NCBI GenBank assembly: GCA_965263035.1 | Contig: OZ253580.1 | Span: 928,001 to 992,000, forward strand | Source of the DNA: Acidobacteriota bacterium | Lineage (GTDB): Bacteria; Acidobacteriota; UBA6911; RPQK01; JAJDTT01 | Reading direction: 5' to 3' | DNA length: 64,000 nucleotides | Part shown: positions 16,267-59,870 of the stretch, in pieces | Numbering within the stretch: the stretch's first letter is position 1 | Layout: each line of letters begins with the position of its first letter | Made by a program: the position numbers and the translations under genes | Notes under the pieces: model-generated | What the model saw: only the letters and a program-made list of their open reading frames with translations | What the model was told of the DNA's origin: nothing | The model's database searches: none

Positions 16267-16426
16267 CAGTCCGTGGTGAAAGTCCCACGCAGCACCGAGA
16301 CCGGGGCTGCGCCCGCCGGACAAGGCGCTCTGAGGAAGCATACCGGGAGTATGTGACCGAGGAGCAACGCAGTCCGCGCACGATGCAGACCCGGTCAAAT
16401 GCCGTGACGACTTTTGCCACGGGCTG
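16267..16426 (+). mobile_element. ~160-bp MITE, copy 2
   Basis: Same TIRs as copy 1; flanked by TTAA at 16263-16266 and 16427-16430. Confidence 0.85.
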
Positions 16427-16566
16427 TTAACCCAAGCTGGCCTGCCGAGCTCCCGCCGTAATTCCTATAACCGATGACTAACAAAGGAGATAAGATCTTC
16501 CGGTGGTCAGCACGGGAGTCGGCCTGATTGACTGCCAGTTGGCTGCCTTGGTAGATTCTTGCTGCA

Positions 16567-24231: not shown

Positions 24232-24288
24232 CGAATCCGGAATCGTCGACCCCGGCGGGTGCGCCCGCGAGCCGATCTTGTGGCTTAA

Positions 24289-24446
24289 CAGCCCGTGGCA
24301 AAAGTCCTCACGGCATTCGACCGTCCCTGCATCCCGGCAGACTGCGTTGCGACTCGGTCACATACTCCCGGTATGCTCCCTCATCGCGTCTGGTCCGGCG
24401 GGCGCAGGAACGGTCTCGGTGCTCGCGGGACTTTCACCACGGACTG
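24289..24446 (-). mobile_element. ~160-bp MITE, copy 3 (inverted)
   Basis: Reverse complement of copies 1 and 2; TTAA at 24285-24288 and 24447-24450. Confidence 0.85.
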
Positions 24447-24628
24447 TTAACTTTGGAGATCCGAACTCAGAGCGAACCCGATCCTCTCGTGGAAGGACTC
24501 TATCTGCGGCGGGCATCGAGAAGATCCGTTCCTGTAACCCTTCGGCCAGACTTCGGATATGGGGTTCGCACTCGCCTTGGGCTGCGGGTTGCCGACCTCC
24601 AAAAATCCGGGTTAGACTGTGAAAAGTC

Positions 24629-41194: not shown

Positions 41195-42523
41195 TCATCG
41201 CCTCCGTACCTCGATCGGCAGAACGAAGATGCGGGTGAGATCGCCCTCGTGGGCCGGTCTTGGTTTCGCCCCGCGATCATAAACGAGAAGCAGCCGATTT
41301 GGGGAGATTTCCACCATCTCGGTATAGGCCGAGGTCTGAGTGCGTCCCTCACGGCCAGGAGTGGAGGTGTCGTACGCGTAGGAGCCGATGCGATAGGTGG
41401 CGTCAGGCGCCCATCCGTTGTGATGCTCTCTGATATCGACGCTCTGCCAGTTCTCACCACGGCGGTCGGTGGAAAGCCAGAGCCAAATACCGGGCCTGCC
41501 CGTGGAGATGACGATCGTCCCGTTGGCGATGCGCAGCATGCTGGGTTCCACGCTGTAGGCGGGGATGGGTTCCGCCCGTGTCCAGCTGCGTCCCCCATCA
41601 TTGCTGTAGGCTCGGTGCAGGTACCAGGGGAGGCCGCTGCCCACGCGAAAAACGGCCATCAGATCTCCATCCTCCAGCCGAATGACCGCCGTTTCACTGG
41701 GACCGTTGGCTCCCCTCTTGGATGACTCGGGCATAATGGAAGGGTCTGAGATGGTCGAAAAGTAGCGCCAGGTCCGCCCCCGGTCGTCGGAGACAAAGAG
41801 CAGGTTCCTCATCAATTCCTCCGGGTACGATTTGGTGCTAAGGTATCCGGTGACGAAAAGCCTGCCTTCCAGTTCATAGGCGTTGCCATCCAGTTTGGTC
41901 CGCGCAATCCAGTTGGTTCGAGGAATGGCGCTGGGAAACATATCCACGGCCCAGGGCAAGTCCACCAATTTCGTTCCAGCCGGTTCAAAGATGAGCCTGT
42001 CGCCGCCTCGTTCAAAGCGACCGTAAGGGGCATGGAGGTTGTGTCTGTCCTCGGGGTCTGCCTGATAGAAATGGGAAGGAATGGCCAGCAGGGAGCCGTC
42101 GGCTTGCGGATAGTAGATCCAAGGCTGATGATCGGGAATCATCTCGTAGCGATGTCCCCAAGTCTTGCCCCCATCCTTGGAGATCTGCAAGCCCGTGACG
42201 TAAAGCGCCTCTTCGTTCGTGTCCGCCACCAGTGAGTATGTCACCATGAGTTCCCCCGAAGGGAATTTCGCGATGGCGGGAACGGGGTGGATGAAAGCCC
42301 AGGGCCCATCCGATCCGCTCTGCCAGGCCTTCTGGGCGGTCACCTGGATGGGCCGGCCCAGGCGCACCTGCAGCCCTTCCAACTTTACGTCGGTCATATT
42401 CTCTGCTGCGAATATGTCTGAAGCATGAGTCCGCTGGGCATGGCCGCAACTGGAAACGGCGACTAGTAGCCCTAGCAGCAGCAACCGCTTCGACGATGCG
42501 TTGTAGTCATGCAATTGGTCCAT
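41195..42523 (-). CDS. BNR/Asp-box sialidase-like lipoprotein
   Basis: Lipobox VSSC; SKDGGKTW, SDDRGRTW, SNDGGRSW. Confidence 0.85.
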   Translation of the reverse strand: MDQLHDYNASSKRLLLLGLLVAVSSCGHAQRTHASDIFAAENMTDVKLEGLQVRLGRPIQVTAQKAWQSGSDGPWAFIHPVPAIAKFPSGELMVTYSLVADTNEEALYVTGLQISKDGGKTWGHRYEMIPDHQPWIYYPQADGSLLAIPSHFYQADPEDRHNLHAPYGRFERGGDRLIFEPAGTKLVDLPWAVDMFPSAIPRTNWIARTKLDGNAYELEGRLFVTGYLSTKSYPEELMRNLLFVSDDRGRTWRYFSTISDPSIMPESSKRGANGPSETAVIRLEDGDLMAVFRVGSGLPWYLHRAYSNDGGRSWTRAEPIPAYSVEPSMLRIANGTIVISTGRPGIWLWLSTDRRGENWQSVDIREHHNGWAPDATYRIGSYAYDTSTPGREGRTQTSAYTEMVEISPNRLLLVYDRGAKPRPAHEGDLTRIFVLPIEVRRR

Positions 42524-48416: not shown

Positions 48417-48435
48417 GCGGCCCTCGGCATCCTAG

Positions 48436-50200
48436 CCCGGATATCTCATCAGAAAGATTGATAAAGGCCGCGTTTTCTGCTATAAGTGTTGTGTAATCAA
48501 TAACTTACAAAGCAGAAGGGACGCGACCTTATGACCGCAGAGTGTACCAGAATAAAGCTCAGATTTCAGGGCCTGGACGGACGGGATGTCGTGGGCCGGT
48601 TCGACGGCGGCGAGATCACCTCCGACGCCGGTGGCGTGCTCCTGCGCGAAGTGGAGCAGCGGACCCGGATTCTGGGTCGTCTGAGCGAATGCTTCACCGA
48701 CTATCGAGACTCGGATCGAGTCGAACACCCGGTGGAGGCGTTGATCAAACAGCGGGTGCTGGGGCTGTGCCTGGGCTACGAGGACCTCAACGACCACGAC
48801 GAGTTGTGCCGGGACCGGCTCTTGGCGCTGTTGTGTGATCGAGATGATCTGACGGGGGAGTTCCGGCGCGTGGAGTCGGATCGAGGCAAGCCGCTGGCAG
48901 GCAAGAGCACCCTGAACCGACTGGAGCGGACTCCGTTGGAGGGACCGGAGGGCGCGTACAAGAAGATCGTGGCCGACCCGGCGGGGATGGACGAGCTGCT
49001 GCTGGAGGTGTTTGTGGAAGCGCATCCGGAGCCCCCGGAGGAGGTGATCCTGGATGTAGACGCCACGGACGATCCGCTGCATGGGAAGCAGGAGGGACGG
49101 TTCTTCCACGGCTATTACAAACGCTACTGCTACCTGCCGCTGTACGTCTTCTGTGGGGAACACCTGTTGCGTGCGCGGCTGCGCACGGCGGATCGAGGCG
49201 CGGCCCACGGGGTGGTGGCGGAGTTGGAACCAATCGTGAGGCGGCTGCGTGAAGCGTGGCCCCAGGTGCGGATCACGGTTCGAGGGGACAGTGCCTTCTC
49301 CAACGACGAGTTGATGGTCTGGTGCGAGAAGGAAGGGATCGATTACGTCCTGGGGTTGGCGCAGAACGATCGGCTGAAGCGGAGGATCGCGACCCGGATG
49401 GAGACCGTCCGGCAGTTGCAGCGGGCGATCGGGAAGGCCGTGAGGCAGTTCCAGGAACTGCGCTATCAGACGCACAAGAGTTGGTCGTGCGAGCGCCGGG
49501 TGGTGGCGAAGGTGGAGCACCTGCCCCGGGGAAAGAACCCGCGATTCATCGTGACTTCGGTCCCGGTCCAGGAATGCGATGGGCGAAGATTGTACGAGGA
49601 GGTCTACTGCGCGCGGGGAGACATGGAGAATCGGATAAAGGAACAGCAGATGGGTCTGTTTGCGGACCGCACGTCGACCCGGAAGCTGGCGGGGAATCAA
49701 CTGCGGTTGTATTTCTCGGCATTCGCCTACGTGATGATGGAGACGTTGCGACGGGTGGGGCTGGCGGGGACGAAGCTGGCGCGGGCGCAGAGCTGGACCC
49801 TGCGGGTGAGATTGCTGAAGATCGGGGCACAGGTCCGGATCACCAGCCGCAAGGTCTGGTTGTCCTTTTCCGAGAGCTATCCGTATGCGGCGCTGTTGAG
49901 GACGGCTCTGACGCAAGTGCAAGCCCTCCCGCTTCGCTGTTAGCAACGGATGGAAAGAACTCTTTGGACGATGGCGACTTGGGAGTCCCCAGGATGGACT
50001 GCGCCCCGGAGTGGGCACCGGGTCGAGAGTCGTCGCTCAGAAGCGCAGGATGGGCGTCAAAAGGCTCTGGAGAAGCGCTGCATCTGGCCGTTGGTCGGCA
50101 CGTTCGAGCACGAAAACTGCCTCTTGAACTCGTATGGATAAAGAATCACCCAGACGACGGTTCAACTTCCGTTTATTGTTCTACTGATGAGAAATGCAGG
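48436..50200 (+). mobile_element. IS1380-family element, copy 1 (intact)
   Basis: TIR CCCGGATATCTCATCAG / CCTGCATTTCTCATCAG; CTAG TSD at 48432-48435 and 50201-50204. Confidence 0.93.
48531..49943 (+). CDS. IS1380-family transposase
   Basis: FDGGEITSDAGG, LDVDATDDPLHGKQEG, VRGDSAF, YCARGDMENRIKE. Confidence 0.95.
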   Translation: MTAECTRIKLRFQGLDGRDVVGRFDGGEITSDAGGVLLREVEQRTRILGRLSECFTDYRDSDRVEHPVEALIKQRVLGLCLGYEDLNDHDELCRDRLLALLCDRDDLTGEFRRVESDRGKPLAGKSTLNRLERTPLEGPEGAYKKIVADPAGMDELLLEVFVEAHPEPPEEVILDVDATDDPLHGKQEGRFFHGYYKRYCYLPLYVFCGEHLLRARLRTADRGAAHGVVAELEPIVRRLREAWPQVRITVRGDSAFSNDELMVWCEKEGIDYVLGLAQNDRLKRRIATRMETVRQLQRAIGKAVRQFQELRYQTHKSWSCERRVVAKVEHLPRGKNPRFIVTSVPVQECDGRRLYEEVYCARGDMENRIKEQQMGLFADRTSTRKLAGNQLRLYFSAFAYVMMETLRRVGLAGTKLARAQSWTLRVRLLKIGAQVRITSRKVWLSFSESYPYAALLRTALTQVQALPLRC

Positions 50201-50687
50201 CTAGGTTGCTTCCCCTCAAAGTAGTCTTCCGGCGTGTAGATTTGAATCTTGGGCAGGTCCATGAAGCGTCCGGCGTTGACGGCGGCATTTCTCATGCCGT
50301 TGGTCACTCTGTCTCGAAAGCAGGTGAAGATGCCGAGATCAGCTCCGGCCTGTTGACGTGCGCCGTTGAAGGCTTGGACGTGTCCGGGATTGGTAGAGCC
50401 GCCTTTGACCTGAGAAACGATGTCAATGAACCGGCCCTTGCGGATCGGGAGCCGTCCCACGCCGTCAATTCCGCCATCCCGTCTCTGGATTCGGTTCGGC
50501 TCCATACCGTCCACCAGAGCAGCAGCCCACCTCTCAAACCGGAATTTATCGATGCCGGCAAGCTCCTGAGCGTGTGTGATGGTATGGGGAAGGCCAATGT
50601 ATTGGGTGTGTTCCCAACGGATTCATCCGGGACATCCTCCCGCATGACTTCAAGGTGGTCTCCAAAGATCAGTCGATTTTCGTTCAA
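50201..50687 (-). pseudogene. Internally deleted DNA methyltransferase - Mrr-like endonuclease fusion (cargo of element C)
   Basis: MTase N-terminus NRLIFGDHLEVMREDVPDESV, then in another frame DKFRFERWAA...DGGIDG...VSQVKGG...GIF...PKIQIYT; 3' end cut by IS1380. Confidence 0.75.
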
Positions 50688-53655: not shown

Positions 53656-53836
53656 GATTTCCTCCCGTTCGAGAAGTCCAAGGATGAATCTTACAGCAGA
53701 GATCCAACCGGGAACAGGGCTATGGCCAGCGACACGGCTAGCCCGGATATCTCAACAGAAAGATTGATAAAGGCCGCGTATTCTGCTATAAGTGTTGTGG
53801 TATCAATAACTTACAAAGCAGAAGGGACGCGACCTT

Positions 53837-55250
53837 ATGACCGCAGAGTGTACCAGAACAAAGCTCAGATTTCAGGGCCTGGACGGACGGGACGTCGTGG
53901 GCCGGTTCGACGGCGGCGAGATCACCTCCGACGCCGGTGGCGTGCTCTTGCGTGAAGTGGAGCAGCGGACCCGGATTCTGGGTCGGCTGAGCGAATGCTT
54001 CACCGATCATCGGGATCCGGATCGGATCGAACACTCCGTCGTGGCGTTGATCAAACAGCGGGTGCTGGGGCTGTGCCTGGGCTACGAGGATCTCAACGAC
54101 CACGACGAGTTGTGCCGGGACCGGCTCCTGGCGCTACTGTGCGACCGGGACGACCTGACGGGGGAGTTCCGGCGCGTGGAGTCGGATCGAGGCAAACCGC
54201 TGGCAGGCAAGAGCACCCTGAACCGACTGGAGCGGACCCCGTTGGAGGGACCGGAGGGCGCGTACAAGAAGATCGTGGCCGACCCGGCGAGGATGGACGA
54301 GCTGCTGCTGGAGGTGTTTGTGGAAGCGCATCCGGAGCCCCCGGAGGAGGTGATCCTGGATGTAGACGCCACGGACGATCCGCTGCATGGGAAGCAGGAG
54401 GGACGGTTCTTCCACGGCTATTACAAACGCTACTGCTACCTGCCGCTGTACGTCTTCTGTGGGGAACATCTGTTGTGTGCGCGGCTGCGCACGGCGGATC
54501 GAGGCGCGGCCCACGGGGTGGTGGCGGAGTTGGAACCGATCGTGAGGCGGCTGCGTGAAGCGTGGCCCCAGGTCCGGATCACGGTTCGAGGGGACAGTGC
54601 CTTCTCCAACGACGAGTTGATGGTCTGGTGCGAGAAGGAAGGGATCGATTACGTCCTGGGGTTGGCGCAGAACGATCGGCTGAAGCGGAGGATCGCGACC
54701 CGGATGGAGACCGTCCGGAAGTTGCAGCAGGCGATGGGCAAGGCCGTGAGGCAGTTCCAGGAACTGCGCTATCAGACGCACAAGAGTTGGTCCTGCGAGC
54801 GCCGGGTGGTGGCGAAGGTGGAGCACCTGCCCCGGGGAAAGAACCCGCGGTTCATCGTGACTTCGGTGCCGGTCCAGGAATGCGAAGGGCGAAGATTGTA
54901 CGAGGAGGTCTACTGCGCGCGGGGAGAGCATGGAGAATCGGATAAAGGAACAGCAGATGGGTCTGTTTGCGGACCGCACGTCGACCCGGAAGCTGGCGGG
55001 GAATCAACTGCGGTTGTATTTCTCGGCATTCGCCTACGTGATGATGGAGACGTTGCGACGGGTGGGGCTGGCGGGGACGAAGCTGGCGCGGGCGCAGAGC
55101 TGGACCCTGCGGGTGAGATTGCTGAAGATCGGGGCACAGGTCCGGATCACCAGCCGCAAGGTCTGGTTGTCCTTTTCCGAGAGCTATCCGTATGCGGCGC
55201 TGTTGAGGACGGCTCTGACGCAAGTGCAAGCCCTCCCGCTTCGCTGTTAG
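53837..55250 (+). pseudogene. IS1380 transposase with +1 frameshift
   Basis: GGGGAGAGCATGGAG versus GGGGAGACATGGAG in copy 1 (~54928); otherwise near-identical to 48531-49943. Confidence 0.9.
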
Positions 55251-55494
55251 CAACGGATGGAAAGAACTCTTTGGACGATGGCGACTTGGGAGTCCCCAGG
55301 ATGGACTGCGCCCCGGAGTGGGCACCGGGTCGAGAGTCGTCGCTCAGAAGCGCAGGATGGGCGTCAAAAGGCTCTGGAGAAGCGCTGCATCTGGCCGTTG
55401 GTCGGCACGTTCGAGCACGAAAACTGCCTCTTGAACTCGTATGGATAAAGAATCACCCAGACGACGGTTCAACTTCCGTTTATTGTTCTACTGA

Positions 55495-57492
55495 GTAGAG
55501 TCGAGGAGAGGCGCGACGGCCGTAGGTGGTAGGGAGTCGCTGTTGCCGGCGGCTTTCGCCCTCATGCCGGTGCCTCAATCTCCACCGTGACCCCGTTTCC
55601 TCTCCCCGCTCATCGAACCGGACGTGCGCTACTAACGCATCCGGCTCTCGGACGAGATCATACGCGCGCCCACGGAAAGCTGGCCGTTCGCGGACCAAGA
55701 CGAGTGAGCTCCCACTCCTTCCAGAGTCGCTTGTCCGGGAAGCGCACCGTCTTCCCGGCCCTCACCTTGTGCTTGCGGCTCAGCCACTGGCGCAGCCGCC
55801 GGGTCGCGTGCCGATCGATCGTCGCATAAGCGGGACTCACCTGACCCAACGAGAAGTAGTTCGCCCAACCGTTCAGAAGCCGGTTGAGGCGTCCCACGAC
55901 TCGCTCGGGTTCCAGGAGTCCATAGCGTCTCTCGGTCAACGCGCTCACCCTGCGGCAGAGGCTCTGAACGCTCGCCGGGCTCGGGCGCGTCCCAATGTAG
56001 GCTCGCCCCGTATCCCGGCGGTAGTTGCGCCCAATCCGGTAGCCGAGGAACTCCAGCGGTTCCTCCGGCACCCGCACCTCTCGGGTCTTCTCCGCGTTCA
56101 ACGCCAGCTTCAGACGCTTCACCAAATCCTCGACCGCCGTCCGCATGATCGCGGCCGGAGCTTGGCCCAGGACCACAAAGTCGTCTGCGTAGTTGACGAT
56201 TTCCGCCTTGAAGCGCCGAGCGTAGCCCAGTCCCTTCCAGCCCAGAATGAAGCGTCGCATGTACAAGTTGCTCAGCAGCGGTGAGATGGGCGCCCCTTGC
56301 GGGGTCCCTTTCCTCTCTTGCCGCGCCCGGGTCGTTCGGCGTCGTCCGCCGCAGCCGTCCTCTTCCTCCACCGCCATCTCCAACCAAACCTTGATCCAAC
56401 CCACCACCCGCCCATCACTGATGCGGCGGGCCACGGACTTGATCAGTTGGGCATGGGGGATCTGGCCGAAGTAGTCCGTCAGGTCGGCGTCCACCACCTC
56501 GCGGTGGCCCCGGTTCAGCAGTCGGTGCACGTGCTTGACGGCATCGCCCGCGCTCCGGCCCGGCCGATAGGCATATTGTTCCGGGGCCAGATCGGCTTCG
56601 AAGATCGGCGACAACACCAACATTGCCGCCGTCTGCGCCACCCGATCCCGCACACACGGAATGCCCAAAGGCCGGAACTTCCCGCGTTGCTTCTTCGGGA
56701 TCAGAACCTGCCGCACCGCGTTGGGCCGGTAGGTCCCTTCCTTCAGGTCCCGCGCCAGTTCCCCGAGCCACCCGTCCACCCCCGACGACTCGATGTCGGC
56801 GATCGCCTCCCCGTCCACCCCGGCCGACCCGCCGTTGCGGCGGACCTCCTGCCAGGCCACACGGAGCACGTCCAACCGCCACACCTTGTCGCACAGCGAG
56901 TAGAACCGGAAGCCCGGAGCCTCCTTCGATGCTCGCATGGAGCGTCTTCCGGAGTCTCTGAACTTTCTCTGAAGCTACTAGGTTCTCACCAGTCTTCACG
57001 TCCTTTTCCCCGTCCAACGCGGTTCTCGAACCAAGGCCCCTTCCCTCCACCGGCGTTACCCGGCTTCTCCAGTACTACGGGCCTCTCCGCCACCCCGACG
57101 GCCCAGGCTGGCCCTCACGGGTTCCCGGTTGACGCGTGCCACGCCACCGGCGGGGCTTCCCGTGTTGCTGCTGTCTCCCTCTTGTCCACATGCCACCGCC
57201 ATTACCCCGGCGGAACCGGCCGGTGCTTCCGTCGCTCGCTTCCCGGCCGCTGGCAGCCTTCGTGCGTTTCTCAGGCGGGTCGGCTTCCGCATTACCCGTT
57301 TCGAGGCCTGCTCAGCGTTCGCTCAAGCTACGGCCTGCGGACTCGCTGAGTCGCCTAAAGCGACCCTTTGACATCGGAGTGCTTCAGTCCATATCGTTGC
57401 CTCCATGAACCGCTCCGACTGCTACCGGCTGGAGCGACAGTTGCCGGGCGGGTTTCGCACCCGCTGGGAGAAAGCGCCTTTCCACGGCGCAC
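55495..57492 (-). mobile_element. Group II intron (1998 nt)
   Basis: 5' end GTGCGCC at 57492; domain V GAGCCGGATGCG...CGCACGTCCGGTTC at 55615-55647; long domain VI ending CTCGACTCTAC at 55495; RT ORF inside. Confidence 0.93.
55658..56938 (-). CDS. ltrA: Group II intron reverse transcriptase/maturase (no En domain; N-terminal frameshift)
   Basis: RPLGIPCVRDRVAQ, GTPQGAPISPLLSN, YADD, LNGWANYF; upstream NLVASEKVQRLRKTLHA is in a different frame. Confidence 0.9.
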   Translation of the reverse strand: MRASKEAPGFRFYSLCDKVWRLDVLRVAWQEVRRNGGSAGVDGEAIADIESSGVDGWLGELARDLKEGTYRPNAVRQVLIPKKQRGKFRPLGIPCVRDRVAQTAAMLVLSPIFEADLAPEQYAYRPGRSAGDAVKHVHRLLNRGHREVVDADLTDYFGQIPHAQLIKSVARRISDGRVVGWIKVWLEMAVEEEDGCGGRRRTTRARQERKGTPQGAPISPLLSNLYMRRFILGWKGLGYARRFKAEIVNYADDFVVLGQAPAAIMRTAVEDLVKRLKLALNAEKTREVRVPEEPLEFLGYRIGRNYRRDTGRAYIGTRPSPASVQSLCRRVSALTERRYGLLEPERVVGRLNRLLNGWANYFSLGQVSPAYATIDRHATRRLRQWLSRKHKVRAGKTVRFPDKRLWKEWELTRLGPRTASFPWARV

Positions 57493-57505
57493 TGAGATAT
57501 CCGGG

Positions 57506-58010
57506 CTAGGTTCGCCCGCCGTCATCGGAGACAGACAGCAAGCTGCTCATCAGTTCCTGAGGGTAGGCTTTCGTACTGATGTATCCGGTGGCGAAAAGCC
57601 GGCCTTCCCGTTCGAAGGCGCTGCCGTCCAGTTTGACCCGCGCGATCCAGTTTGTCCGCGGTATCGGGCTGGGAAACATATCCACGGCCCAGGGCAGGTC
57701 CATCATTCGAGTTCCAGCCGGTTCCATGACCACCCGATTCCCTTCCCGCTCAAAGCGGGAGTAGGTCGCATGCAGGTTGTGCCGGTCCTCCGGATCCGCC
57801 TGGTAGAAGTGGGAAGGTATGGCCAATAGGGAACCGTCGTCCCGTGGGAGGTAGATCCAGGGTTGATGGTCGGGGATCAGGTCGTTTCGATGCCCCCAGC
57901 TCCTACCCCCGTCCCTGGAGATCTGGAAGGCTGTAAGGTAAGTCGGATTTTCGTTGGTGTCGGCCACCAGCGAGTAGGTCACCATCAGCTCTCCGGTGGG
58001 GAATCTTGCC
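57506..58010 (-). pseudogene. Internal fragment of a BNR/sialidase-like paralog
   Basis: ARFPTGELMVTYSLVADTNE...SDDGGRT, highly similar to 41195-42523; cut at the IS1380 CTAG; no N-terminus. Confidence 0.85.
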
Positions 58011-58061
58011 CGGATTCTCCGATCCACCGGGCCTCGGCGCCTTTTCCCTTGCCCCTCGGCT

Positions 58062-59870
58062 CTAGGCGCCTGAGACAAGCGAGACACGGACCTGCAGCAA
58101 CTCAACGGGCACGGAGGGCTCCCCTCCCCGTCGAGGATCGACCGTCAGCTCCAAGGCGTTGTTCCCTTTTCTCAGAGTAAGCGGATCCACTTTGAAGCTC
58201 AGCCAGCCGGCTTCTTTTTGAAAACCCAGGCCGTACCCAGCTTCCGTGTACTGCCTGCTGGTTTCCGGGGAAATGTACCCTTTCGGTGAAGACGGTTGCG
58301 GATTGGAGATCGGCCGGCCGTTGAGTTTCCAGGTGGCCCGTCCCCCGTCGGTTGCGTCTTTCCATTGGGTCAGCACGGTCGCTGTCGCCACGGAATCAGG
58401 CTCATCAACGATGGTCAAGGCGAACCGCACGCTATTCGACCCCGACTGGGTGGTCAACACCCGGGGCAACTGGCCGGGTATATTCCGCGTCTTGGAAGGC
58501 CGATCCGGGTCGATGGCATAGAGCTTGTTCTTGCCTACGAGGGCCTTTGGGTCCCCTACACGAGGCACCGTACCGTAGTCTTTTGGATCGGTGGGGCCGT
58601 GATGGGTATGCCAATCAAAGAGGTAGATTCCGTCTACTCCCTCTTCCCAAAACCGGTGGGAGGCTGCATCAACCGCGGTGTAGTCAGAGGCGACATCGTC
58701 TTCCAGCTCGGGATCGCGATGGTCAAACTTGGGCCGCCCGGTGCGAAAAGGTTGCACGAGACGGTCGAGACAGCCGTAGACCTGGATACCGTATCGATGT
58801 CCGAGTCGGACCCACTCTTGGATAGGGATGGAATAAGGCATCAGTCCGGAACCGCCTATGATGAGATCCACCCAGTGGTTGCGAGCCCAGGTCTCCGGGT
58901 CCAGTCCGGCCGACAGGCTCAGCTGGATGCTGTCCGGAGGGCGGACGGCGAGTAGAATCGGATGTCCTCGCCTTTCCCCGAAGTGGTCCAGTGTCTGACG
59001 GACCTGATGAACGAAGTCGTTCATGATGGGCGTGTTCCGGCGCTGCTCCCCGAGCTTGAAGAACATGCTGTGCCGGCACCAGTCGAGTTCCACTCCATCC
59101 AGGTCATAGCGGCGGCAGGCTCCTTCCACCACCTCCAGGTATCGGGCCCGGACCTCGGGGAGCGCATAGTTGTAGCCCGCCCAGAAGCGGGCGTCGCGAG
59201 AAGCCATTCCGTTGCGTTTGATGACGTCTGCCAGCGGATGATCTTCCTCGGCCTGACGGCGCAACTCGACGATCTCTTGGGGGTCGTAAAGGTCCTGTTT
59301 CTTCTCGATTTCACTGTAGCGTTGAATCCAGGGCAGGGTTTTCTTTTCCCAGTGTTCCCTCGAAATAAAACCCAACATCAGTTCAGGATGTTTGAGCCTG
59401 AATGGGGGCCAGTAGGAGGCCTTTGGAGGGAACAGGGAGGCGTGGATGTCATTCATTCGAATGGAGTAAAAAAACTCCATTCCATTCTGGCGCGCGAAGT
59501 CGACTGCATGCCTGACGGGATTCGGACCCAGGACTTCGATGTGTTCTTGTGGGAACTCCCAGTCGGGCTCGTTGACATGGGCACAGTAGAAAATGCTGGC
59601 TACTTCCGTCCCCTTCACATAGCTGAGCGTGTTCGCCAGGAACTTGCCGGGTGATTTCAGGGGATTCGGCCACTTACCGCCTGCGTAGGCGGGCTGCAGC
59701 ATGTCACTGCCGTCGTTGTTCCAAAGAACGGGACGCTTTCGCCGCCTGGCCTTCGCTCTCTTAGCAGCCGGACTGGAGCCCAGAACGGCAGGGGCGCCGC
59801 CGTGGGCAGAAACGGAGGAAAGCCAAGTTGCGGCAGTCATTTGTTTCAGAAACGTTCGCCGATTCTTCAT
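58062..59870 (-). CDS. Tat-exported GHL10/DUF187-like protein (paralog of 42853-44646)
   Basis: NRRTFLK; WNNDGSDMLQPAY, IRMNDIH, YDLDGVELDWCRH, DWHTHHGPTDP. Confidence 0.7.
   Translation of the reverse strand: MKNRRTFLKQMTAATWLSSVSAHGGAPAVLGSSPAAKRAKARRRKRPVLWNNDGSDMLQPAYAGGKWPNPLKSPGKFLANTLSYVKGTEVASIFYCAHVNEPDWEFPQEHIEVLGPNPVRHAVDFARQNGMEFFYSIRMNDIHASLFPPKASYWPPFRLKHPELMLGFISREHWEKKTLPWIQRYSEIEKKQDLYDPQEIVELRRQAEEDHPLADVIKRNGMASRDARFWAGYNYALPEVRARYLEVVEGACRRYDLDGVELDWCRHSMFFKLGEQRRNTPIMNDFVHQVRQTLDHFGERRGHPILLAVRPPDSIQLSLSAGLDPETWARNHWVDLIIGGSGLMPYSIPIQEWVRLGHRYGIQVYGCLDRLVQPFRTGRPKFDHRDPELEDDVASDYTAVDAASHRFWEEGVDGIYLFDWHTHHGPTDPKDYGTVPRVGDPKALVGKNKLYAIDPDRPSKTRNIPGQLPRVLTTQSGSNSVRFALTIVDEPDSVATATVLTQWKDATDGGRATWKLNGRPISNPQPSSPKGYISPETSRQYTEAGYGLGFQKEAGWLSFKVDPLTLRKGNNALELTVDPRRGGEPSVPVELLQVRVSLVSGA

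Follow-up and report, generated by a model that had tools for sequence, protein, structure and literature searches.

An endonuclease-less group II intron at the terminal inverted repeats of IS1380-family elements in an Acidobacteriota genome

Introduction

What places a group II intron exactly 13 nucleotides (nt) from the end of an insertion sequence (IS), within its terminal inverted repeat (TIR)? The question is raised by the window analysed here, a 64,000-nt stretch of an Acidobacteriota bacterium (assembly GCA_965263035.1, contig OZ253580.1, positions 928,001 to 992,000), which carries two copies of one 1765-bp IS with a 470-aa transposase, the second interrupted by the intron. We consider it very probable that this is a mobile intron without an endonuclease (En) domain and that it normally homes to the point where the CTAG target-site duplication (TSD) meets the outer 13 nt of an IS1380-family TIR. 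We present here the anatomy of the element, its copies in the genome, its predicted pairing with the target through exon-binding sites (EBS) and intron-binding sites (IBS), and its relatives.

Host element and intron

The features concerned are as follows (window positions, strand, identity).

48436..50200, plus: IS1380-family copy 1, intact; TSD CTAG at 48432-48435 and 50201-50204
48531-49943, plus: intact copy-1 transposase, 470 aa, IS1380 family
53742..57505, plus: IS1380-family copy 2, intron included; CTAG at 53738-53741 and 57506-57509
53837..55250, plus: copy-2 transposase gene, frame broken by a 1-nt insertion near 54922-54929
55488..55494, plus: inner part of the right TIR, CTACTGA; on the minus strand the start of the intron 3′ exon, TCAGTAG
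57493..57505, minus: outer 13 nt of the right TIR, severed from the IS; IBS1 (57493-57499) and most of IBS2 (57502-57506)
55495..57492, minus: group II intron, 1998 nt; limits from four genomic copies, the empty site and Rfam matches
57323..57466, minus: 5′ ribozyme part (domain I), Rfam group-II-D1D4-4 (RF02003)
55495..55649, minus: domains V and VI, RF00029 match; domain VI unusually long
55658..56938, minus: intron-encoded protein, 426 aa, reverse transcriptase (RT) and maturase
57267..57273, minus: EBS1, UGAGAAA, intron nt 220-226; hairpin loop of the consensus fold, covariation across seven EBS classes
57294..57298, minus: EBS2, CGGGU, intron nt 195-199; unpaired in the consensus fold, varying with the target in relatives

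The coordinates of the intron, both IS copies and the empty site had been proposed from the letters of the window alone (hereafter the sequence-only reading), and all of them hold, as does the assignment of the host to IS1380: its transposase matches NF033539 at 387.1 bits (cutoff 180) and DDE_Tnp_1_4 at 2.6e-148. Members of this family (ISfinder) have terminal inverted repeats beginning with CC and a short target duplication. The TIRs of the host, CCCGGATATCTCATCAG and CCTGCATTTCTCATCAG, begin with CC and are flanked by such a duplication. The four bases beyond the CC...GG termini are identical on both sides across 16 genomic IS copies, and because the duplications other than CTAG (ATAG, TTAG and CTAA, in 4 of the 16) also match at both ends, these bases are the TSD and the IS starts at CC. 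This settles the distance of 13 nt between intron and IS end in favor of the original proposal.

The empty site in copy 1 reads CTACTGA|TGAGAAATGCAGG-CTAG, with the junction at 50187|50188. The interrupted site in copy 2, in plus-strand order, reads CTACTGA (to 55494), intron, TGAGATATCCGGG (57493-57505), CTAG; the intron splits the right TIR between nt 13 and 14 from the IS end, so that the outer 13 bp of a TIR of at least 17 bp are cut off from its inner part. Copy 2 is 97.4% identical to copy 1 (compared over IS nt 1-1754). Its transposase is recovered by tblastn as residues 1-364 and 360-470 in two frames (a +1 frameshift), and Pfam DDE_Tnp_1_4 spans just residues 15-365 of the read-through open reading frame (ORF).

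On the minus strand the intron begins with GTGCGCC at 57492 and ends with GACTCTAC at 55495, and all four full-length genomic copies have GTGCG at the 5′ end and ...CTCTAC at the 3′ end, in agreement with the expected boundaries (5′ GUGYG, 3′ AY). A domain I-IV ribozyme is indicated by RF02003 (90.5 bits; gathering score, 49). RF00029 scores 35.1 bits, below its gathering score of 40 (E value, 1.1e-4), with domain V aligned at high posterior and the match ending exactly on the last intron base; relatives at loci L082 and L076 score 45 and 43.9 bits. The encoded protein has RT and maturase (X) domains (Pfam RVT_1, 4.1e-33; GIIM, 7.1e-16), matches TIGR04416 at 316.8 bits (cutoff 300), contains the YADD motif and ends in ...LGPRTASFPWARV. 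A Pfam search of its 426 residues found no endonuclease domain, and the intron is thus En-less, as had been claimed.

Copies in the genome

A search of the genome (one 6.2-Mb contig, G000:C1) returned four full-length intron copies (I1 to I4) and two fragments. The same TIR position, 13|14 of the IS right end, is occupied in three of the four full-length copies and in one 5′ fragment. The three hosts are diverged variants of the IS: that of the window copy, I1, is 97.4% identical to copy 1; that of I4 is 98.6% identical, with the 5′ exon CTAG CCTGCATTTCTCA; and that of I3 is 93.6% identical, its empty homologue reading TTAG CCCCCATTTCTCA|ACACCGACACG. CTAG CCGGGATATCTCA precedes a 322-nt 5′ fragment that belongs to a 91% relative. 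Homing to IS1380 ends, as first suggested from the window alone, is borne out by these copies. The introns are 98.8 to 99.6% identical to each other, the three host ISs 93.2 to 97.1%; because the introns are more alike than their hosts, and because the outer 13 nt differ among the hosts, the insertions represent separate homing events rather than one transposed composite. The three diverged IS copies were thus invaded independently, each at nt 13|14 of the right end. Three intron copies retain the intact 426-aa ORF (99.5 to 100% identical, YADD kept).

The intron has also entered one unrelated site carrying the same 12 paired bases. This ectopic copy, I2, lies outside any IS. It follows GTTACCTGTATTTCTCA, with IBS2 paired 5/5 and IBS1 7/7, and a 23S rRNA gene begins approximately 170 nt downstream of it. 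I2 (L039, G000:C1:5841476-5843472) has the same orientation as the 23S rRNA gene and would be cotranscribed with the rRNA if the promoter lies upstream.

The 16 IS copies comprise 11 near-identical ones (at least 99.7% to copy 1) and 5 diverged ones (at most 98.6%). Their left ends read CCCGGATATCTCA|TCAG and their right ends, from outside inward, CCTGCATTTCTCA|TCAG. Right ends are occupied in 3 of 16 cases and left ends in 0 of 16.

Two of the introns are themselves interrupted. I3 first seemed to have inserted into the left end of another IS1380-family element, a reading that was rejected when this second IS proved to have landed later, in the last bases of the intron (L038:2189-4185; G000:C1:5538888-5540884). 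It has the TIR CCCAGATTATTCAT, a CTCTA duplication and a 490-aa transposase (NF033539, 234 bits), and it now supplies the final C of the intron. I4 is split at intron nt 1207, within the RT gene (equivalent to window position 56287), by a 2225-bp element (G000:C1:5054088-5056312; L040:1389-3613) whose sole gene encodes a large serine recombinase with Resolvase, Recombinase and Zn_ribbon_recom domains. In public run X1, one contig departs from the window intron at the base equivalent to the I4 split and continues into letters resembling the end of the recombinase element, which may repeatedly target that intron site.

Target recognition

In the layout proposed here, EBS2 pairs with 5′-exon positions -14 to -10, a 2-nt linker occupies -9/-8, and EBS1 pairs with -7 to -1. 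The last IBS2 base is the G of the CTAG duplication, so that the target consists of that base plus the outer 13 nt of the TIR. UGAGAAA pairs 7/7 with TTTCTCA of the copy-1-type right ends and 6/7 with TATCTCA, exactly as stated in the sequence-only reading, whose identification of this heptamer as EBS1 is upheld by the consensus fold and by covariation. An RNAalifold consensus of 11 sequences places EBS1 in a hairpin loop and EBS2 unpaired on the 5′ side of the same arm.

A MAFFT alignment was made of the 5′-terminal 330 nt of 22 intron copies, drawn from 10 genomes. The EBS1 and IBS1 heptamers covary (UGAGAAA/TTTCTCA, CACAAUU/AGTTGTG, AGUAUUU/AAATACT, UGAAUUA/TAATTCA and UGUAUUU/AAATGCA), and EBS2, located 21 nt upstream of EBS1, varies with positions -14 to -10 (e.g., CGACA/GGTCG and GGACG/CGTCC). 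At fixed columns over 7 EBS classes and 21 sites, EBS1 forms 6.14 of 7 pairs with cognate IBS1 sequences versus 3.4 of 7 with noncognate ones, and EBS2 forms 3.7 of 5 versus 2.4 of 5; locus L087 was left out of these counts as 5′ rearranged, and two rows from genome G011 are undercounted by a 1-nt register shift. Of 60 further relatives, 42 have at least six EBS1/IBS1 pairs, versus 20% of controls. Confirmed in this way, the predicted EBS/IBS pairing with the 5′ exon would explain the location of the intron at the TIR end.

Perfect IBS2+N2+IBS1 sites ([AG]CC[CT]G-NN-TTTCTCA) number 24 in the genome, where 2.2 are expected from base composition; with the repeated occupation of one TIR position, this excess shows that the match is no coincidence. 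Twelve are right ends of the host IS and most others are IS1380-like or miniature inverted-repeat transposable element (MITE)-like ends; only 2 of the 24 are occupied by the intron. Empty MITE-like inverted pairs of IS1380-like ends (CCCGCATTTCTCACCAG...), 110 to 274 nt apart and with perfect IBS1 and IBS2, lie at G000:C1:1345141-1345431 and 1762103-1762229, and the intron of a relative (G001) occupies an end of the CCCGCATTTCTCACCAG type.

In 19 of 42 representative targets (similar targets collapsed), a TA dinucleotide occupies -16/-15 or -15/-14, upstream of the pairings, compared with a background mean of 1.5 of 42 for register pairs between -30 and -18. It is also present at dispersed sites with unrelated flanks, such as L162 to L164 (TAGC, then the IBS), which argues that it is not merely a by-product of transposon duplications. 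In RmInt1 T-15, and in RmInt2 C-16 and T-15, are read by the intron protein (PMC4615759). By analogy, the TA approximately 15 to 16 nt upstream is probably an extra recognition element contacted by the protein. Since the IS duplicates CTAG, the full target (TAG and its own terminus) is built wherever the IS inserts; the transposon makes a homing site at each new location.

Relatives and their targets

At an E value of <= 1e-60, the RT was found in 15 of 60 related genomes in addition to that of the window. Same-genus copies (91% RT identity) follow TTAGCCCGCATTTCTGA, CTAGCCGAAATTTCTCA (the right end of a related IS) and CGTAACCGATGATCTCA, and the intron copies of the genus show the 5′-exon logo CC(C/T)(G/C)NAT(A/T)TCTCA, much as the sequence-only reading had expected. 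A clade with approximately 52% RT identity, in three other genera (G035, G028 and G052), follows CTA(G/A)CCCGGATNATTCA and sits at 13|14 of approximately 180-bp MITEs with IS1380-type TIRs and matching duplications (CTAG/CTAG and CTAA/CTAA). In G035, different copies occupy either end of one MITE family, and seven identical RT copies lie in MITEs with differing outer TIRs; a pattern search of that genome found just five uninterrupted ends of this type, three of which are the partner ends of intron-bearing MITEs. One copy in G055 has, as its 3′ exon, the left-end interior of a full IS1380 element. Another G055 locus, L091, was considered as a left-end insertion and was not counted, having a TIR-like 5′ exon with its 3′ part replaced. 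The use of two sites per IS, as proposed, is not seen in the window's genome, where 0 of 16 left ends are occupied; in relatives both MITE ends and the left end of a full IS have been entered.

A wider scan gave 80 loci with RT identities of 70 to 91%, in records titled Acidobacteriota, Vicinamibacterales, Terriglobia, Alpha- and Gammaproteobacteria, Spirochaetia and others. The 5′ junction is recognizable at 63. An IS1380-type end is present at only 1 of these; 9 follow CAGCCCGTGGTG, the end of an approximately 75-nt MITE whose 4-bp duplications match in the four copies readable on both sides; 6 follow GGACAGTGATCGA, the end of an approximately 100-nt MITE with 3-bp TNA duplications; and the other 47, classed only as other sites, may hide further repeat ends. 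An IS1380-type gene stands beside only 1 of the 80 loci (tblastn with two transposases of the window's genome). Relatives with 76 to 82% identical RTs, in other phyla, have different targets, including the two other MITE termini. Unrelated flanks in relatives had been named in advance as the finding that would count against TIR homing, and such flanks occur at the 47 sites, but EBS1 has changed alongside them; the pairing mechanism is therefore supported rather than refuted. No transposase is annotated next to the introns of four plasmid-borne relatives (H1 to H4, from Planctomyces sp., Bradyrhizobium, Frigoriglobus and Microvirga), whose 5′ exons do not resemble the TIR.

A sister intron clade (L052, L064, L067 and L072 in G011; L104 and L106 on plasmids) has the EBS2 GGACG and follows (A)CGTC(C/T)GC...N. 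In G011 the 5′ exon is conserved for at least 35 nt and the 3′ exon diverges past TGCGG, a pattern which suggests that these introns entered a repeat approximately 5 nt from its other end. Repeats in the window at 1302-1470, 16291-16434 and 24281-24450 (families D5, I5 and I8-I11) end in ...GACTTTTGCCGCGGGCTG and are unoccupied. They are similar to the CAGCCCGTGG-type MITE, the ends of which serve as intron targets in relatives from Vicinamibacterales.

Alternative explanations and effect on the IS

The intron would enter DNA by reverse splicing, and replication forks would then prime reverse transcription, as in other En-less introns. A different account of the shared position is descent: a single entry of the intron into one IS copy, after which the composite of the two multiplied by transposition. 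Beyond the intron, the outer 13 nt and the terminal CC...GG do persist, and the arrangement is alike in all three occupied ISs, as such hitchhiking would predict. The host ISs, however, differ by 2.9 to 6.8% and the introns by only 0.4 to 1.2%; the outer 13 nt differ among the three hosts (CCCGGATATCTCA, CCTGCATTTCTCA and CCCCCATTTCTCA); I2 lies outside any IS; in G035 identical RT copies sit within differing outer MITE TIRs; and the intron is absent from all 11 near-identical IS copies, which have evidently transposed recently. No composite of IS and intron with a new duplication was found in the genome. We give this account next to no probability, and the suggestion in the sequence-only reading that the intron could ride on the IS is not sustained.

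Recognition of the TIR by protein rather than RNA (e.g., of the CTAG/CC junction), with the EBS matches secondary, is very unlikely. The TA approximately 15 to 16 nt upstream, which is conserved over many unrelated targets and lies outside the clear pairings, does point to some protein contact, and distal 5′-exon contacts by the protein are documented for RmInt1 and RmInt2 (PMC4615759). Yet EBS1 and EBS2 vary with the target in every lineage examined, the I2 site has in common with the TIR only the paired bases and TTAC, and relatives with 76 to 82% identical proteins use quite different targets. It is also improbable that the copies are dead remnants whose association with the IS says nothing of present function, although fragments exist, one copy is split by the recombinase element and another has an IS in its last bases, and the exon-exon junction is not seen in RNA contigs; the intact and nearly identical ORFs with YADD in three copies, the 98.8 to 99.6% identity among copies and the well-conserved domain V argue otherwise.

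Several observations weigh against homing at IS1380 ends as we describe it. EBS3 was not identified in the intron. Many matching ends are empty, namely 12 right ends with perfect IBS1 and IBS2 and all 16 left ends (6/7 IBS1), and homing must therefore be inefficient, recent or restricted. The window copy has an A-A mismatch at -6, and its outer 13 nt are the left-end sequence CCCGGATATCTCA, with three mismatches to all 13 other right ends (CCTGCATTTCTCA). Recombination between left-end and right-end introns was tried as the source of this left-like end and was set aside, as the genome holds no reciprocal product (intron followed by left-end interior). With the replication origin placed at about 2.86 Mb and the terminus at 5.5 to 5.84 Mb by GC skew, the intron has the lagging-strand orientation at 3 of 3 occupied sites and 11 of 16 of all sites have it (P of about 0.29, hand count), which is compatible with insertion on the lagging-strand template and not significant. 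The joint of 57493 to 55494, which would mark spliced exons or an empty site, was not seen in contigs of public runs, RNA runs included, a result that cannot show its absence. The two IS1380-targeting clades do not group as sisters in the RT tree, whose base lacks resolution; TIR targeting may have arisen twice or have been lost in between.

If the intron homes to TIRs as we propose, the consequences for the IS can be considered. A copy whose TIR is split by a 2-kb intron probably transposes poorly, and the intron would then be a parasite of the transposon and not a rider. Of the 5 diverged IS copies, 3 carry the intron, against 0 of the 11 near-identical ones (hypergeometric P = 10/560 = 0.018, calculated by hand). 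This distribution lends weak support to the earlier idea that the intron blocks transposition; it fits a loss of transposition and equally fits a longer exposure of older copies. If a split TIR truly stops transposition, such introns limit IS expansion, a point relevant to the shaping of bacterial genomes by nested mobile elements.

A broader scheme is possible, and we offer it tentatively. A lineage of En-less introns across several phyla, the window intron among them, may have specialized in transposon termini: the conserved TA(G) approximately 15 nt upstream would match the core of the CTAG and TNA duplications, and by changing only EBS1 and EBS2 the intron could hop among unrelated transposon ends (IS1380, IS1380-type MITEs and two other MITE families), always 12 to 13 nt inside. 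New transposon insertions would create new sites, a split TIR would disable the copy, and the intron would act as a hyperparasite damping transposon bursts.

Comparison with known systems

The closest parallel is RmInt2, an intron of Sinorhizobium meliloti GR4 whose mobility was shown by experiment and which homes into the inverted repeats of ISRm17; each IS offers two sites, one of them always on the lagging-strand template (PMC4615759 and PMC5894124), a rationale that matches the one put forward in the sequence-only reading. The targeting of transposon TIRs, which had seemed less familiar in the sequence-only reading, is thus observed here and is not new, having been published for RmInt2/ISRm17 (PMC4615759). 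RmInt2 resembles the window intron in being En-less with an RT/maturase of 419 to 426 aa, in its layout (IBS2 at -14 to -10, linker at -9/-8 and IBS1 at -7 to -1, also read in the RmInt2 record), in having CTAG just upstream (the selected RmInt2 positions -16 to -10 are CTAGTTC) and in tolerating relaxed EBS2 pairing. All of its copies are reported to lie inside IS inverted repeats.

The two introns are otherwise distinct. For comparison, RmInt1 and RmInt2 were taken from pRmeGR4c: their RTs are just 32% identical to that of the window, and they match Rfam D1D4-2 (RF01999), whereas the window intron matches D1D4-4 (RF02003). The class D C-terminal motif, LX3AX3PXLF[V/A]HW as given in PMC4615759, is present in RmInt1 and RmInt2 (...GLFVHW and ...DLFVHW) and absent from the window protein, by which the window intron is assigned outside class D. 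A class E example on pRmeGR4b is also set apart, matching RF02005 (D1D4-6) and having an RT 38% identical over residues 67-288. The host families differ as well, ISRm17 belonging to ISNCY, ISDol1 group (PMC10194956), and the window host to IS1380. Relatives of the window intron add MITEs as targets, and in the window's genome only right ends are used, unlike for RmInt2; the mobility of RmInt2 is experimental, while that of the window intron is inferred.

Homing into IS elements is common among group II introns (PMC3522654). RmInt1 in ISRm2011-2 and the Escherichia coli and Shigella introns E.c.I1, I3, I4 and I9 likewise use a multicopy mobile element as a safe homing site recognized by EBS/IBS pairing, at sites described as lying within the IS and not in a terminal repeat. 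Introns of class C (IIC) are En-less and are found at terminators and attC sites. They recognize a stem-loop plus short IBS1/3 and have no EBS2, whereas the window intron uses EBS1 and EBS2 on a linear 14-nt sequence. That class C introns exploit recurrent structural features of DNA instead of a single gene is mentioned in PMC3522654 and PMC7923331. IStrons, in which a group I intron is combined with an IS, are also self-splicing introns joined to DNA transposons; as PMC4227781 presents them, they are one chimera moved by the IS machinery, whereas the window intron and its IS are separate elements and the intron moves alone.

A literature search, with subscription journals mostly beyond reach, found no report of group II introns in the terminal repeats of IS1380-family elements or MITEs. 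The principle of TIR homing is already known from RmInt2, and the window intron is an independent, well-supported example. Some value is added by its EBS2, the TSD-spanning target, the MITE targets and the retargeting across phyla. Homing into transposon terminal repeats is accordingly not peculiar to one rhizobial class D intron: it recurs with a different intron type, a different IS family and nonautonomous MITEs. The covariation of EBS1 and EBS2 over natural targets provides ready retargeting rules for this type of En-less intron.

Public sequence data and neighboring genes

A contig from run X1 passes from 55494 into the intron-free right end of another IS copy, which shows only that other copies exist. 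A candidate 833-nt skip within the ORF (55653 to 56487) was disregarded, as its sides are shorter than 30 nt. Summed contig depth over 57027-57461, in the 5′ ribozyme part, reaches 10^3 to 10^4 in RNA libraries X15 and X16, versus about 4 in the flank; contig depths mix organisms and cannot rank parts, and no conclusion on expression is drawn from them. Across metatranscriptome runs X15 to X17, depth over the same interval exceeds that of the ORF and flanks by factors of hundreds to thousands, and this could reflect stable excised RNA of many related introns.

An ORF at 57506-58105 (minus strand) adjoins the IS right end, its TAG stop codon falling inside the CTAG duplication. A 78% paralogue of this gene lies 15.7 kb upstream (window positions 41767-42066 aligned with 57505-57804).

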